Position numbers and translations under genes: made by a program
NCBI GenBank assembly: GCA_013138735.1
Contig: WTCE01000107.1
Location: forward strand, 1,771-65,770
Source: Crocinitomix sp.
GTDB lineage: Bacteria; Bacteroidota; Bacteroidia; Flavobacteriales_D; Crocinitomicaceae
DNA: 64,000 nt
Direction of reading: 5' to 3'
Shown: piece after piece, positions 55,092 to 61,457 of the stretch
Numbering within the stretch: the first letter of the stretch is position 1
Layout: each line of letters begins with the position of its first letter
The notes under the pieces: generated by a model
The model's input: the letters and a program-made list of their open reading frames with translations, nothing else
Database searches by the model: none
What the model was told of the DNA's origin: nothing

Positions 55092-56951
55092 ATGAAACCA
55101 ATTCGCACCTTTCTAATTCTGCTTTTACTGTTTTCACAACACGGTTTTTCACAAATTGGCGTAAATATTGGCTTGCCCGAACGCGGTGGAACTTATATTG
55201 ATTTAGCCAAAGAGAATTACCGGTGGAACAATTTAGCCACAGCCACACCCATAAACTCAGGCGAAGTAGATGCCAGTGGATGGCCGACAATTAATGCCGA
55301 ATATATTATTGATTTCAGACCTGTTGCAGAATGGGGTGGGTTTATTGATGATCCAGAGGTGTATCGATTAGACGTCAGCGGCACTTGGAAATGTTCTTTT
55401 ATTGGGCAAGCAGATCTCACGGCTTCTGGAGGAACAATAACAAGTGTGACCTACGATTCACCCAGCAATACCACAACCTTTGATTTTGTTGTAGCACCTG
55501 GCAGTCCTGGTTTGTTCTTTATGCAATTTGACAATACACAACGTACCGATACCGACCCTTTAAACACAGGGTTTACTAATTTTAAAATGTTGCGGCCTGG
55601 TTATGCGAATGACGACAACCTCTTTCATACTGCATTTTTAGACTTATTTAATGAACTTGATTTTAGTGCCATTCGCTACATGGTTTATACCAACACCAAC
55701 GGCAGTGATCCTATTTATCCATCTGAAAAAAACTGGGCAGATCGAAAACTAGCGACAGATGCTGCACAAACTAGAATGGATGCACTGAATAAAAAAGACG
55801 GCGCGTGCTGGGAACATGTGATTGATATCGCCAACCGAACAGAAACGGATGCATGGATTAATGTACCGATATCGGCAAGTACAACTTATATTACTGAACT
55901 AGCAACGTTATTTAAAGCGAACCTATCTGCCGACTTAACGCTATATGTTGAAAGTAGCAATGAAGTTTGGAATACAGCCCCCGGTTTTGAACAAAGCGAT
56001 TATAATGAAAGCGAAGCTGCTGCTCTTGGAATAAGTGCAATTGAAAACCATGCAAGACGAACAATTGAAATTGCTCAAATTTTTGAAACCATTTACGGAC
56101 TAGGAAGTTTAAACAACGAAGTCCAAGTCATTTTGTGCAGTCATAAACCTATGCTGCAATGGTGGGTTGAACCAATGCTCGAATATGTTGAATCAAACTT
56201 TGGTGCGCCTTCCAATTATATTTCGGCCATTAGTTGCCAAACCTATTTTTCTGGCGGAGAGGATGACGGTGAAAGTATTTCCGAAATCCTAAGCGATTGT
56301 CATACTTCAATTACCGATCAAATTGATGATGGTGGTGTTGATTTAGCAGGAAGAAAACAATGGATTGAACGTGCCAACGCTTGGGAATTAAGTGGTGGAT
56401 TTACTTCGTATGAGGGTGGGCCTGACCATGGCGGCGGTGGAATCGTCAATATAGAAAATCGGATTATGGCGGAACGCTCGGAGGGCATGTGTGAAGAAAT
56501 GCGTTATAATTTAGACGAAGGTTTTTTACAATTAGGCGGGAAATTAGCCATGCAATTTACACTGACAAGTAGTTATAATCGCTACGGCTGCTGGGGTTTG
56601 ACGGATGATGTGAATGTTCCTGATCGTAATTATAAATTTCAATGCATGAAAGATTTATTAGACGCAGAACCCTTGACCATTGCTGACAGAAATACGCAAG
56701 AACCTGTTTTGGTCTACCCAAACCCTGCACAAACTACCATTAATTTTTCCTTTAACTTGATCGAAAATTCTGATCTCGCAATTTCAATTTTCGACCCAAC
56801 TGGTCGATTGGTGAAAACGATTACAAAAATCAATCAAAACCAAGGAGAACATACTATGCAGTTTGAACGCGAAGAATTAATGAATGGCCTTTACTATTTT
56901 ATGTTTGAAGCTGGGTCGCAAACCGCAAACGGTTCCTTTGTTCTTGATTAG
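55092..56951 (+). CDS. T9SS cargo with a putative clan GH-A-like catalytic domain
   Basis: AIRYM, DAWINVP, YVESSNEVWN, FTSYEGG, YGCWG; CTD VYPNPAQ...GLYYF. Confidence 0.75.
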   Translation: MKPIRTFLILLLLFSQHGFSQIGVNIGLPERGGTYIDLAKENYRWNNLATATPINSGEVDASGWPTINAEYIIDFRPVAEWGGFIDDPEVYRLDVSGTWKCSFIGQADLTASGGTITSVTYDSPSNTTTFDFVVAPGSPGLFFMQFDNTQRTDTDPLNTGFTNFKMLRPGYANDDNLFHTAFLDLFNELDFSAIRYMVYTNTNGSDPIYPSEKNWADRKLATDAAQTRMDALNKKDGACWEHVIDIANRTETDAWINVPISASTTYITELATLFKANLSADLTLYVESSNEVWNTAPGFEQSDYNESEAAALGISAIENHARRTIEIAQIFETIYGLGSLNNEVQVILCSHKPMLQWWVEPMLEYVESNFGAPSNYISAISCQTYFSGGEDDGESISEILSDCHTSITDQIDDGGVDLAGRKQWIERANAWELSGGFTSYEGGPDHGGGGIVNIENRIMAERSEGMCEEMRYNLDEGFLQLGGKLAMQFTLTSSYNRYGCWGLTDDVNVPDRNYKFQCMKDLLDAEPLTIADRNTQEPVLVYPNPAQTTINFSFNLIENSDLAISIFDPTGRLVKTITKINQNQGEHTMQFEREELMNGLYYFMFEAGSQTANGSFVLD

Positions 56952-58182: not shown

Positions 58183-58221
58183 AAATAAAAGAGGGAAATA
58201 TCCTTTCGAATAAATCCCTCT
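58183..58221 (-). terminator. Intrinsic terminator directly after the Cys-rich small ORF
   Basis: Minus strand AGAGGGA-tt-TATTC-GAAA-GGATA-tt-TCCCTCT-TTTATTT. Confidence 0.8.
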
Positions 58222-58228
58222 CGTGTTT

Positions 58229-58312
58229 TTAACAACAGCTATTGGTTGTTTCACACGTACAAGTGCAATTATTGTTTTCATCACAGGTACATGTACAGTT
58301 ACAATTTTTCAT
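58229..58312 (-). CDS. 27-aa Cys-rich metallothionein-like peptide MKNCNCTCTCDENNNCTCTCETTNSCC (not in ORF track)
   Basis: Manual translation; 9 Cys; A-rich leader; own promoter and terminator. Confidence 0.8.
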   Translation of the reverse strand: MKNCNCTCTCDENNNCTCTCETTNSCC

Positions 58313-58348
58313 CTTTTAATTTATTAAGTGATACATTCTTTTGTCACT

Positions 58349-58381
58349 TATACAAACGCAGTACTTTAAAAAAGACGCAAA
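58349..58381 (-). promoter_or_regulatory. ECF promoter copy upstream of the Cys-rich peptide: TTTGCGTC-N15-CGTT
   Basis: Same boxes and spacing as the copy upstream of the sigma gene. Confidence 0.75.
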
Positions 58382-58396
58382 CAAAATAATCTTAGG

Positions 58397-58930
58397 TTAA
58401 CAATCACAGTCTTTTTCATCTGCATCCAGTACATTCCCATAAGTGTCTGTTTGGATGGCACAACACGCAACAAATAAGTTTTTCAATTTTTCCTTTGCTC
58501 GTTGCGACCGTGATTTAACGGCTGAATAGCCTAAGTTTAAACTAGCGGCATATTCTTTTTGACTCATTGAGCCAAACGCTGTTTTATTGAGTAGGTCTTG
58601 ATCCTTTTCAGACAGTTCTTTTACGAATGAAGTCAAACATTTGCTTAAATCCTGAGTGGATTCAGTTGATTCTTCTGGAAATTTTTCTTCGATCGTTTCT
58701 TGATAAACAACCCATTTCTTTTTTCGATAAGAATCAATGATTGTATTGCGTGTGATGCGATAAATCCAGCTAGCCAAATTGGTACCTTCCGTTAATCCTT
58801 TTAGGTTCATATGAATCTTAATGAACACTTCTTGTAAAAGGTCCTCGGCCAATTCATGATCGTTTATTCGGGACTTTATAAACCCAAACAATTCTCCTTT
58901 AAAATCATTCCAAACATGTTCTGTTGTCAT
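58397..58930 (-). CDS. sigZ: SigZ-family ECF sigma factor with a Cys-rich C-terminal tail
   Basis: AEDLLQEVFIK...SWIYRITRNTIIDSYRK; SQKEYA...YSAVKSRSQRAKEKLK..FVACC...YGN...CDC. Confidence 0.85.
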   Translation of the reverse strand: MTTEHVWNDFKGELFGFIKSRINDHELAEDLLQEVFIKIHMNLKGLTEGTNLASWIYRITRNTIIDSYRKKKWVVYQETIEEKFPEESTESTQDLSKCLTSFVKELSEKDQDLLNKTAFGSMSQKEYAASLNLGYSAVKSRSQRAKEKLKNLFVACCAIQTDTYGNVLDADEKDCDC

Positions 58931-58940
58931 TGTTTTCTTT

Positions 58941-58973
58941 TATTAGACGTACTATCTTTAAAAAGACGCAAAA
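58941..58973 (-). promoter_or_regulatory. ECF autoregulatory promoter TTTGCGTC-N15-CGTC upstream of sigZ
   Basis: Minus strand TTTTGCGTCTTTTTAAAGATAGTACGTCTAATA. Confidence 0.75.
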
Positions 58974-59000: not shown

Positions 59001-61457
59001 ATGCAAATTACTCAATCTATAGCAAATGCATTAATCCGGTCAATGTGTCTTGTGGTTTTTTGCTGTTCAGGGTTTGTATATGGTCAGGAAGAGGAATTGC
59101 TTGAATTTCCCGTAGAAAGTGCACCCAAAAAAGGTGAAACCATCATTACGAGAGTTGATGGAGCGTATGCCTTAAAAAGAGATGACTCAACCTTTGTTGT
59201 TGGTGATTATAATAGGATTGAAAAACTTAGTAATCGCGCGTTTCTTGTAAAAACAGAAGGTAAATGCGGTCTAATTAATGAAGATGGCCTTTTAATTATT
59301 CCCCTTAAATACAGTTCTATTGCTTATATAAATAAGAAGCATTCAAATGATCTTCTCATAAAAAAGGGAAATAAATATGGTTTGATGAATGATTCAGGGG
59401 ATTTACTATTGCCCACCAAATATTGTGAGATTTACTATGGGAACTCGTTTAGTAAACTCTATCTAGTTAGAGATAAAAAGGGGAGGTTGCAACTATTAAT
59501 GGGTGCAAAGCCTGAACTATTAACAGGAATAGACAAATTAACTTTTTTCAAAGACGGCGCGCTAATTGAAAAAGCAGGAAAATTTGGTTTCATTCATCAA
59601 GGAACACTTACAATTCAACCTGAATATGATGGAATTGAAGTTGAAATGAGCACAAAAAGTGCAACGCATTTAGCAAACGACAGCTATTATAAAAGCCTTA
59701 CTCAAAATGCCATTCATGCTGTTGTAGTCGAAAAAGATGGAAAAAAGGAGCTTTACAAAGTTAACGGGGGAAATGTTTTTGATACCGACTTAGACGAAAT
59801 AAAATTCGATAACCTTAGAAAAGTATACACAGTAAAACGTGGAGACAAATGGGGGGCTTACATCCCAATTTATGATACGAAAATTGACCTGATTTATGAT
59901 CGTGTTTACTTGTTTGGAATGGATCGTCTCTCACCTATCAAAGATGGCAAACAAGGTGTAATAGATTATTCGGGTAAGACTATAATTCCATGCGCGTATA
60001 GCTCTGTTCAAGAACAATTAACCGGTGATTTCATAGTGAAAAACGGCGGTAAATCTGGCCTCATCAGCAAATCTGGAGAAGCCATTTTTCCTGTTGAATA
60101 TGATAAAATTGAAAAAATCTTTTCTAACCGAAAGCTTTATAACCACTACCATGTTGCCCGTAATGGACTTGTAGGCATCATCATGCCCGGTGAGATAATT
60201 GTCCCTATTGCATTTAAAACTATTCTAGAAAAGGCCGATTATTTTATCGTAGAAAAGGCCGGATTATTTGGAATCTATAATTTTGAGGGACTAGAAATAC
60301 TCGCTCCGATTTACGATAAGGTATTTGAGAGCAGAACGAATAAAAGTAACATAATTATTACTAGAAAAGGGAAGGAATTAGCTCTTGTCAATCAATCTAA
60401 AAACCCCATACTATTAGATCATTTAAAAACAATTCGATACATCAACAATAGCTATAATTTAAACAACTCCGCATCCGAAAATAAGACGACAGCTTTTTTA
60501 GGCGTACAAAGTGAAAATGGAAAATGGGGGGTTTTTGAAGAGCTGAAGCCTAAGTTGGTCGTCCCGATCATTTATGATGAAATAATTCAAAGGTTAGACT
60601 TAGAAAAAAGCACTTATTTCATTGTAATGCAGGACAATAAAATGGGTGTAATTAATTCAAAAAATGAAATTCTAATCCCAATTGAATACCAAAGCCTCGA
60701 CTTCGATAATGTATCTGCTCAAACAATAACTGAACCTTTCGAAGTTAATATTGTTGCGAAAAAAAATGGTAAATACGGTTTGATCGATTTAGAGAATAAT
60801 ACTATGATTCCTTTTAAATATCATCACCTTGCAAAAATAAGTTTTGATGACATTTATAAGGCCAAAACCAAAACTACTTATCGGGTGATTAATAGCAATA
60901 ATGAAAAGATTTTTGAGACTGAGTTCGATAATATTGGAATTTTCGAAAAAGAAACTGCACTCACTTTTAAGGCTGGAAAAATGCGTGTCATTAATCAAAG
61001 CGGCACTTATATAACGGACGCTAAACCTATGACATACCATCAAGGTTATCGCACTTTTGAAGCGCTTAAAATTGATCTTATTAATGCTTTGAATAGTAAA
61101 AGTAATGCCCAACTTTCTGATTTTGCACATAAAATAACACCGAGTAAGCATATGCTCTATCTTTATTCTAAATCCTCACATACCAAAGCTTATTTAGAAT
61201 ATTCGTCCCCTAAAAAAATTGGTAAGCGTTATTATGAAGTGCTTTTAGAAATTAAAGGCGCGTGGAACAGTGGTTCATTTGATCATAAAAAGTTGACGAA
61301 AGTTGAGGATTACACCTATTTCTCTGGCAAGTTTTATTCAAATTCACTAAAAATATATGAGGATTATGGCAGTCGAGAATTAGGATGGATCTTAAGTGAT
61401 GCTGTCCGTTTAGATGGCTTTTGGGTAAGCACTTTCTTTTTGAAGCACCGCTTTTAA
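59001..61457 (+). CDS. WG-repeat-containing exported protein
   Basis: Repeated K.GKYG.I...G..IIP..Y units. Confidence 0.85.
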   Translation: MQITQSIANALIRSMCLVVFCCSGFVYGQEEELLEFPVESAPKKGETIITRVDGAYALKRDDSTFVVGDYNRIEKLSNRAFLVKTEGKCGLINEDGLLIIPLKYSSIAYINKKHSNDLLIKKGNKYGLMNDSGDLLLPTKYCEIYYGNSFSKLYLVRDKKGRLQLLMGAKPELLTGIDKLTFFKDGALIEKAGKFGFIHQGTLTIQPEYDGIEVEMSTKSATHLANDSYYKSLTQNAIHAVVVEKDGKKELYKVNGGNVFDTDLDEIKFDNLRKVYTVKRGDKWGAYIPIYDTKIDLIYDRVYLFGMDRLSPIKDGKQGVIDYSGKTIIPCAYSSVQEQLTGDFIVKNGGKSGLISKSGEAIFPVEYDKIEKIFSNRKLYNHYHVARNGLVGIIMPGEIIVPIAFKTILEKADYFIVEKAGLFGIYNFEGLEILAPIYDKVFESRTNKSNIIITRKGKELALVNQSKNPILLDHLKTIRYINNSYNLNNSASENKTTAFLGVQSENGKWGVFEELKPKLVVPIIYDEIIQRLDLEKSTYFIVMQDNKMGVINSKNEILIPIEYQSLDFDNVSAQTITEPFEVNIVAKKNGKYGLIDLENNTMIPFKYHHLAKISFDDIYKAKTKTTYRVINSNNEKIFETEFDNIGIFEKETALTFKAGKMRVINQSGTYITDAKPMTYHQGYRTFEALKIDLINALNSKSNAQLSDFAHKITPSKHMLYLYSKSSHTKAYLEYSSPKKIGKRYYEVLLEIKGAWNSGSFDHKKLTKVEDYTYFSGKFYSNSLKIYEDYGSRELGWILSDAVRLDGFWVSTFFLKHRF

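Follow-up and report, generated by a model that had tools for sequence, protein, structure and literature searches.

The extracytoplasmic function (ECF) sigma factors of group ECF238 are described in the main text of Casas-Pastor 2021 (PMC7826278) as a merger of the old groups ECF24 and ECF44, with a Cys-rich extension of ~20 amino acids (aa) and an occasional Cys in the linker. The same text places SigZ of Bacillus subtilis in ECF238 subgroup 9 and suggests, by analogy with CorE2, that its C-terminal Cys residues are functional. CorE and CorE2 of Myxococcus xanthus come from the old ECF44, and CorE2 is in ECF238 subgroup 15. CorE2 is activated by Cd and Zn, and deletion of its Cys-rich domain abolishes activity (PMC4937300). 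A CxC in the linker is essential in CorE2 and defines the old ECF44 (PMC4937300, PMC8999054), whose members, ~15% of the group, are the only ones to have this signature (Marcos-Torres 2022, PMC8999054). The 64,000-nucleotide stretch of Crocinitomix sp. DNA analyzed here (the window) encodes a sigma factor of the SigZ type on its minus strand, followed by an unannotated gene for a very small Cys-rich peptide. An earlier reading of this DNA, made from the sequence alone (the sequence-only reading), had proposed the sigma as a candidate direct metal or thiol sensor paired with a tiny chelator; its core sensor inference is the published ECF238 hypothesis applied to a new member.

Comparison with related loci suggests a SigZ module that is complete in itself and reduced to a minimum, with a metallothionein-like micro-protein as its only output. 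We propose that it is a one-component system for sensing trivalent arsenicals or other soft metals and drives a metallothionein-like sponge, a reading to which we give an even chance. Its elements are as follows.

58945..58971, minus strand: predicted promoter P(sigZ), TTGCGTCTTTTTAAAGATAGTACGTCT, with a -35-like TGCGTC and a -10-like CGTCT, ending 14 nt before the sigma start codon.
58397..58930, minus strand: SigZ-type ECF sigma gene, 177 codons (177 aa), encoding sigma-2 (residues 10-73), a disordered linker (~73-92), sigma-4 (98 to ~150) and a Cys-bearing C-terminal extension (156-177).
58354..58380, minus strand: predicted promoter P(pep), TTGCGTCTTTTTTAAAGTACTGCGTTT, the second copy of the motif, beginning 16 nt past the sigma stop codon.
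58326..58349, minus strand: small stem-loop (AAGTGACA...TGTATCACTT) near the predicted 5' end of the peptide mRNA, -5.0 kcal/mol.
58229..58312, minus strand: unannotated 27-codon gene, MKNCNCTCTCDENNNCTCTCETTNSCC, whose product has 9 Cys and no aromatic or His residues.
58190..58221, minus strand: intrinsic terminator (GAGAGGGA..TATTC-GAAA-GGATA..TCCCTCTC then TTTTATTT), closing the two-gene unit.

Matches in Pfam and NCBIfam identify the 177-aa protein as an ECF (group 4) sigma-70 factor: Sigma70_r2 is found at residues 10-73 (51.6 bits against a cut-off of 24), Sigma70_r4_2 at residues 98-149 (28.2 bits against 25.7), and the sigma70-ECF model TIGR02937 scores 79.4 against 42.9. The best NCBIfam matches, by a wide margin over others, are the two SigZ models. 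NF007215 aligns with residues 1-177, tail included (183.5 bits, cut-off 212), and TIGR02959 matches end to end with 167.8 bits, the equivalog cut-off being 168.65. The SigZ cut-off is exceeded by same-genus orthologues in genomes G002, G005 and G009 (168.9-174.8 bits) and by that of G014, from the same order but a different family (181.7 bits). A protein search returned 82 relatives, mainly Bacteroidota proteins, and the closest named relative is a protein from a Crocinitomix sp. metagenome-assembled genome with 84% identity. In the 6.84-Mb source genome the sigma is single-copy, the other ECFs being at most 35% identical to it. The sequence-only reading had called this a SigZ-type ECF, and indeed the open reading frame (ORF) occupies exactly 58397..58930 on the minus strand and the SigZ profiles align over the whole protein.

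The extension at residues 156-177 is of the short, ~20-aa, Cys-bearing kind that characterizes ECF238. The CorE-like pattern is different, since it has a Cys-rich domain of 21-50 residues with 6 Cys in CorE and CorE2, and the window tail has 22 residues with 4 Cys. Judged by its profile matches and its tail, the protein is probably a SigZ-family ECF sigma of ECF238, in the non-CorE branch, and would belong with the SigZ-like majority rather than with the CorE-like set.

A promoter-like motif, TGCGTCYTTTT-N10-11-CGTCT, is found ahead of the sigma gene and again ahead of the 27-codon gene. The pattern was derived from these two sites, so a count inside the window is circular; four other tests are free of this circularity. 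TGCGTC[CT]TTTT-N10-11-CGTCT recurs across 80 loci of other genomes, before the sigma and before the adjoining gene, in Bacteroidota, Balneolota, Bacillota, Pseudomonadota, Acidobacteriota, Cyanobacteriota and others. A motif of the P(sigZ) type occupies the same position in most of these 80 related loci, and the paired arrangement of P(sigZ) and P(pep) is also seen in the same-genus orthologous loci. When a position matrix built from 50 instances, taken from the other loci only, was scanned against the 6.84-Mb genome, P(sigZ) ranked first with 32.3 bits and P(pep) second with 24.4 bits. The third-best site (C175:8015, 19.0 bits) has mismatches in both core elements and was treated as a chance match. 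A strict regular expression found the two window sites, one site with the wrong spacing and nothing else in the genome. Of 21 related genomes, the six with a SigZ orthologue all have the motif, and nowhere but at the SigZ locus, and the other fifteen lack it; the reversed pattern, used as a control over the related genomes, gave 3 scattered matches.

Its -35 element and CGTC-type -10 element give the motif the layout of an ECF promoter, and we read it as the predicted cognate promoter of the sigma. Since one copy stands before the sigma gene, the sigma is predicted to be autoregulated, with a regulon here of the sigma and the next gene, which appear to be its only targets in this genome. The space between the sigma stop codon and the second promoter is too short for a terminator.

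The product of the 27-codon gene is 33% Cys, with CxC and CC motifs. An identical peptide is encoded at five other loci, four of them copies in same-genus genomes (L082-L085) and the fifth (L001) from a public Crocinitomix sp. record that may duplicate one of the four, whereas the sigmas of close relatives are 80-86% identical to the window sigma. Eight codon columns of the peptide gene vary, all synonymously, with no non-synonymous change, and by this measure the gene is under purifying selection. Across the 80 loci, 45 have a Cys-rich ORF of 20-89 aa behind the motif and beside the sigma. These slot peptides usually start with M-x-N-Q, contain many CxC and have CC at the end, and they resemble metallothioneins by composition only. 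The tiny chelator of the sequence-only reading is accordingly borne out as a genuine gene with its own copy of the sigma's promoter; that it chelates is a prediction.

Other relatives have enzymes or transporters behind the same promoter, and these are largely of the kinds found in arsenic resistance. ArsM is the commonest large target, in 10 of the 80 loci. Seven loci have it behind the motif (L028, L041, L057, L066, L068, L069 and L075); the first three score 329-373 bits against a cut-off of 263 in the ArsM profile NF008823, and the other four were assigned by clustering with the proteins of those three. An ArsP-type permease is behind the motif in L063 (PF03773) and in L072, the latter a truncated ORF of 42 residues assigned by eye from its likeness to the N-terminus of the former, and an enzyme of the ArsI/CadI C-As lyase type is found in L079 (197 against a cut-off of 116). 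DUF2703 proteins fill the slot in L055 and L073, both matched by PF10865, and in L074, assigned from its similar sequence. A PhzF-family isomerase in L058 and a flavoprotein in L054 were also found behind the motif.

Several of the sigma genes lie inside ars gene clusters. The gene order in L034 is ArsR, ArsC-like, ACR3 (418 bits against 283), a membrane Cys protein, sigma and Cys-peptide. L031, from Paenibacillus, has ArsR, ArsB (727 bits), ArsC, ArsI/CadI, sigma and a 68-aa Cys-peptide; L063 has ArsR, ArsC, ArsM (350 bits), Acr3, sigma, motif and ArsP; and L019 has a Cys-rich protein, sigma, ArsC, Acr3 and ArsR. A recognized ars gene lies at most 4 kb away in 16 of the 80 loci, and DUF2703 in three more. 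When all ORFs of 90 aa or longer in the 80 loci were clustered, arsenic genes were the sole neighbors common across lineages. In the sigma tree the peptide-linked and ars-linked members are interleaved, with at least 7 switches, and the large Bacteroidota/Balneolota peptide clade that includes the window sigma also holds L028 (with ArsM), L034 and the ars-linked loci of the Saprospiraceae. The family thus seems to retain its promoter and to swap its output module, the modules being overwhelmingly arsenic-related or thiol-rich. In relatives, then, the predicted promoter stands before recognized arsenic-detoxification genes; in this genome its predicted targets are the sigma and the peptide only.

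The Cys-rich output itself varies among relatives. In the Saprospiraceae loci L014, L019, L022, L024 and L044 the motif drives a protein of 94-118 aa on the opposite strand, whose N-terminus is a signal or membrane segment and whose C-terminal half is Cys-rich, and which looks like an exported or membrane-anchored form of the Cys-rich output; in L019 this protein adjoins ArsC, Acr3 and ArsR. In the Marinifilaceae loci L032, L035, L037, L038, L042, L050 and L051 a protein of 83-84 aa with CC, CxC and a terminal CGC is encoded behind the motif and upstream of the sigma, and peptide and sigma appear to be co-transcribed in reverse order. A membrane protein with a conserved FACCKxGACVGVC lies directly before the sigma in two loci of ars type (L034:3496-3975 and L045:752-1474); it has no NCBIfam match.

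The absence of an anti-sigma gene, claimed in the sequence-only reading, also holds. The window neighbors, read directly, include no anti-sigma gene, and ars genes apart, no neighbor is conserved in the ORF clustering of the related loci, a neighborhood typical of ECF238 in this respect. Anti-sigma families are absent from the 25 commonest Pfam families listed for 149 flanking genes from 78 of the 80 related loci. Downstream of the sigma come, in order, the 27-aa peptide gene, the terminator and the gene of a 326-aa protein, which has no Pfam match and whose N-terminus is hydrophobic and signal-peptide-like, with no room for a cytoplasmic anti-sigma domain.

The small ORF does sit at the +1 position usual for anti-sigma genes, and Cys pairs end both the sigma and the peptide, which would suit a regulatory partner that binds the sigma by way of a metal site common to both; alternatively, such an ORF might encode the precursor of a modified peptide natural product. 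A partner of this kind would hardly be expected to have its own copy of the sigma's promoter, nor to vary from 20 to 89 aa with composition alone conserved. ArsM, ArsP and ArsI fill the same slot in relatives, and enzymes and transporters in that position mark it as a target slot. As for a natural product, no radical SAM protein, cyclase or protease is conserved nearby, either in the ORF clustering or among the flanking families listed. We regard both roles as highly improbable and rejected them on genomic context.

The flavoprotein behind the motif in L054 bears on a different explanation, in which the sigma is a thiol-redox switch whose Cys residues are oxidized or alkylated, as in RsrA, the zinc-binding anti-sigma (ZAS) protein for SigR, but within a single polypeptide, the peptide being a sacrificial thiol buffer. 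The L054 gene is flavin disulfide-reductase-like (a distant match of the YpdA/ArsO type), and flavoprotein genes that look similar, judged by appearance, flank the sigma in L045 and L056. Vicinal and CxC Cys are redox-reactive, one-third of the peptide residues are Cys, and diamide was among the candidate signals of the sequence-only reading. The functions of ArsM, ArsP, ArsI, Acr3 and ArsB are, however, specific to metalloids and not to redox, and no thioredoxin, peroxiredoxin or thiol-synthesis gene is conserved beside the sigma in the ORF clustering or the flanking families listed. A redox switch is, in our view, very unlikely.

The tail of the sigma is NLFVACCAIQTDTYGNVLDADEKDCDC, and the protein terminates in LKNLFVACCAIQTDTYGNVLDADEKDCDC. 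All three tail elements reported in the sequence-only reading (ACC, YGN and DCDC) were found, giving the vicinal pair C156-C157 and the terminal C174-x-C176. The internal Cys that it placed in the linker exists as C98 (context DLSKCLTSF), the only Cys of the linker region ...TQDLSKCLTSF; its position is not mid-linker but the boundary of linker and sigma-4, because the Pfam Sigma70_r4_2 match begins at residue 98. Conservation was assessed in an alignment of 80 rows, consisting of the sigmas from 79 of the 80 fetched loci and the window sigma. C156 is kept in all 80, C157 in 77 and C98 in 69, and 73 have at least 2 additional tail Cys. The residues of the D-x-YGN hairpin are also well kept (D162 in 68 of the 80, G165 in 70). 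By this alignment the Cys set is a family feature rather than a chance one. Linker Cys and tail Cys may be connected: the linker Cys is absent in 11 sigmas, 7 of which have four tail Cys (CSCC, CCCC, CCRC), and just 1 of the 69 sigmas possessing it has four. Four-Cys tails where the linker Cys is absent suggest that the linker and tail Cys serve one site, and the pattern looks like compensation within a single site, which is suggestive and no more. In a small clade of sigmas (L058, L062 and L076) all tail Cys beyond the CC position have been lost; these may be a functionally diverged offshoot.

Among PDB sequences the family profile matched canonical ECF sigmas only (SigW, SigH, SigE, SigL and CnrH), and since all these alignments end at profile position 153-156, residues 157-177 represent a family-specific extension outside the solved structures. 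In an AlphaFold2 model based on a 30-sequence alignment, with a mean predicted local distance difference test (pLDDT) score of 76 and values below 50 in the linker (73-92), the last helix of sigma-4 (135-157) ends at the CC and is followed by a short beta-hairpin (160-169) and then by the terminal CxC. Such a geometry could bring CC and CxC together.

With no anti-sigma and with positive autofeedback, the activity of the sigma must, we infer, be gated within the protein. The gate would be a thiolate site formed from the five conserved Cys, C98, C156-C157 and C174-x-C176, with C98 opening sigma-4, C156-C157 closing the -35-recognition helix, and the D-x-YGN beta-hairpin returning C174-x-C176 toward them. 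A thiophilic ligand on this site would hold sigma-4 and the tail in a promoter-competent state, comparable to the Cys-rich domain of CorE2 with Cd or Zn. The leading candidates for the ligand are trivalent arsenicals, As(III), methylarsenite and possibly Sb(III), with Cd and other soft metals second; the arsenicals lead because ArsM, ArsP, ArsI/CadI and DUF2703 share the promoter and because sigmas of the family lie inside ars operons. A vicinal Cys pair with a third Cys is the usual As(III) site in ArsR, ArsD and ArsI. The peptide, with 9 Cys, would have enough for three S3 sites or one M3S9 cluster, and would act as a sponge that sequesters the ligand, so withdrawing the inducer and giving negative feedback. 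Because the peptide gene is under the sigma's own promoter, a sensor-plus-chelator circuit is a reasonable reading of the anatomy. The CorE-like Cys sensing first proposed for this protein stands in so far as there is a Cys-rich tail and no anti-sigma, and fails to carry over in that the linker CxC is absent and the tail Cys number 4. The proposal of a metal ligand keeps its plausibility for a thiophilic ligand in general, and the comparative context favors trivalent arsenicals over copper.

We extend the proposal to the family tentatively, and with less than an even chance of being right: SigZ-type ECFs, which form the bulk of ECF238 once the CorE-like members are set aside, would each act as a one-component sensor that binds As(III) or methylarsenite at its own CC...CxC(+C98) thiolates and so licenses TGCGTCYTTTT-N-CGTCT promoters, their output in Bacteroidota being tiny Cys-rich peptides. 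If this is true, they would be the first sigma-factor-based arsenic sensor, independent of ArsR, and the main Bacteroidota output would be a previously unrecognized family of arsenic- or soft-metal-binding Cys-rich peptides of 20-89 aa. The Crocinitomix-type locus would then be the minimal form, with two promoters, a sigma and a 27-residue sponge in a circuit of positive plus negative feedback.

Several observations weigh against a one-component arsenic sensor with a metallothionein-like output. Eight slot peptides gave no Pfam match, metallothioneins included, at E <= 1, and they are accordingly not classed as metallothioneins. No ars gene lies within the two-gene unit or nearby in the window, and the genome's ArsM-like gene (C7:77636) was checked for the motif and has none. 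ArsR-like genes are located elsewhere, on contigs C89 and C54, the latter beside an ArsP-like gene. The arsenic link for the window clade therefore rests on relatives, and the separate ArsR- and ArsP-like genes indicate that classical arsenic control exists apart from the SigZ unit. The seven sigmas with compensating Cys come from only two or three lineages, the tail of the AlphaFold2 model has a low pLDDT (~56), and a site of Cys4 type might just as well hold structural zinc. Finally, the sigmas of L034 and L063 lack a motif of their own and stand at the end of an operon starting with an ArsR gene, so that there the sigma could act as a relay without itself sensing anything; in these few relatives ArsR may supply the arsenic input.

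The last two points are the basis of a rival explanation, in which the Cys residues bind structural zinc in a zinc-ribbon-like knuckle that stabilizes sigma-4, and the signal arrives through an ArsR-type repressor, proteolysis or an unlinked anti-sigma, the sigma merely amplifying the response and distributing it to the peptide gene. Besides the motif-less, operon-terminal sigma genes of L034 and L063, ArsR genes accompany the sigma in 6 of the 80 loci, two ArsR-like genes are present elsewhere in this genome, and CC...CxC around a beta-hairpin, here taken from the AlphaFold2 model, is a typical structural Zn arrangement. In most loci, however, the window included, the sigma has an autoregulatory promoter and no regulator gene nearby, and an ungated sigma under positive autoregulation would become locked in the on state. 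The tail Cys differ between clades in how many there are and where they lie, as sensory sites do, and the Cys-rich domain is the sensor in CorE2, the nearest characterized relative (PMC4937300). We consider a relay of this sort unlikely.

The lack of a nearby ars gene in the window also fits a direct sensor of Cd, Zn, Cu or Hg, as in CorE and CorE2, with the peptide as a classical metallothionein and the arsenic context elsewhere reflecting re-tuned specificity. Nine Cys in ~30 residues is the composition of the M3S9 beta-domain of animal metallothioneins, and targets that are of the ArsI/CadI family or ArsP-like (SO_0444 Cu/Zn efflux-like) are not strictly arsenic-specific. CorE2 (Cd/Zn) and CorE (Cu) are the sole characterized relatives, and one Cys change switches specificity (PMC4937300). 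Yet the CorE-type linker CxC is absent, ArsM remains the commonest large target, complete ars operons surround several of the sigmas, and no Cu, Zn or Cd efflux family is among the 25 commonest flanking families listed. On balance we think such a specificity quite unlikely and retain trivalent arsenicals as the leading ligand.

The SigZ unit is present in 5 of the 13 genomes of the genus and, on this distribution, is an accessory island. In one of them (L085, genome G010, C6:54679-55179) the sigma orthologue is interrupted by two in-frame stops, at the positions of W73 and S141, with neither promoter motif nor the 27-codon peptide gene affected. The sigma may have been inactivated not long ago, its target remaining, or the stops may be an assembly artifact.

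The ends of the peptide transcript have features of their own. Small hairpins that differ in sequence between lineages recur, as judged by eye, in the peptide leaders of L004, L005, L007, L008, L029, L043, L048 and L060; their folding energies are in most loci no better than those of shuffled controls, and this is a weak feature. The terminator is an extended hairpin with a GAAA tetraloop followed by the T-run (the folded stretch having -22.6 kcal/mol), and it separates the two-gene unit from the downstream 326-aa gene. It was found by direct folding; a consensus terminator scan called no terminator, presumably because the hairpin is not a simple short-loop one. A search of the locus against Rfam gave no match.

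Two other genes of the window surround the module.

59001-61457, plus strand: WG-repeat protein of 818 aa, the divergent upstream neighbor of the sigma.
55092-56951, plus strand: 619-aa protein with a type IX secretion sorting domain.

The WG-repeat gene also adjoins the orthologous module in L001. Neither it nor the 619-aa gene is linked to the sigma module in other lineages.

In the searchable literature we found no SigZ-type promoter, SigZ-type target, Cys-rich peptide family of this kind or arsenic link, and nothing relevant on SigZ or ECF sigmas together with arsenic, arsM or the ars operon. Arsenic is not mentioned in a review of metal-responsive ECFs (PMC6851896), and the main text of Casas-Pastor 2021 does not contain "arsen", "methyltransferase" or "metallothionein", although its supplement may describe the ECF238 promoter or neighborhood. 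What is new here for a sigma of the SigZ type, as predictions from comparative sequence analysis, is a defined promoter together with a target gene and a family context tied to arsenic.

SigZ has been an orphan sigma, its function unknown since the B. subtilis genome was sequenced, and ECF238 is a large group that spans many phyla. The Crocinitomix locus offers a complete and small test system, with one sigma, two promoter copies, one peptide and a concrete ligand hypothesis. Were the proposal correct, it would add a second, activator-type logic of arsenic gene control beside that of ArsR, bring to light an unannotated class of metallothionein-like micro-proteins that is widespread among marine and soil Bacteroidota, and provide a compact, orthogonal sensor-promoter pair for biosensing. 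Even if the Cys residues are only structural, the promoter and the two-gene regulon would be the first predicted targets for SigZ-type sigmas.

The closest characterized counterparts of the module are CorE and CorE2. Like the window protein, they are ECF sigmas without an anti-sigma that have a small regulon beside their gene, and their C-terminal extension is a metal sensor needed for activity (PMC4937300, PMC8999054). The window sigma differs from them in having a single linker Cys and no linker CxC (as defined in PMC4937300, PMC6851896) and in its tail of ~22 aa with 4 Cys, compared to 6 Cys in 28-38 aa. The copy of its own promoter suggests strong autoregulation, whereas corE and corE2 are at most partly autoregulated (PMC6851896). 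The targets also differ: in place of the P1B ATPases, multicopper oxidase and cation diffusion facilitator (CDF) pump of CorE and CorE2, we find a Cys-rich peptide here and ars genes in relatives, and the host is a member of the Bacteroidota rather than Myxococcus.

SigZ of B. subtilis represents the best-matching family, tail included, and likewise has no anti-sigma; its function is essentially unknown, and the window protein scores just below the cut-offs of both SigZ equivalog models (by the values given above).

With the ArsR family the module shares the kinds of gene controlled (arsM, arsP, arsI and acr3). AfArsR, CgArsR and SpArsR have three-Cys sensing sites, in which a vicinal pair is frequent, as is a location close to the C-terminus. 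ArsR and the window sigma are unrelated in sequence, and ArsR is a winged-helix repressor released by its ligand, whereas the sigma, a subunit of RNA polymerase, would be activated by its ligand.

On the output side, the peptide differs from SmtA in being half the size, without His and without a zinc-finger fold, and in being controlled by a sigma rather than by a repressor. The overall logic proposed here would nonetheless be that of SmtA and BmtA with SmtB, and of MymT, in which the synthesis of a thiol-rich sponge is induced by a sensor of the very ion that the sponge binds, and sequestration provides the feedback.

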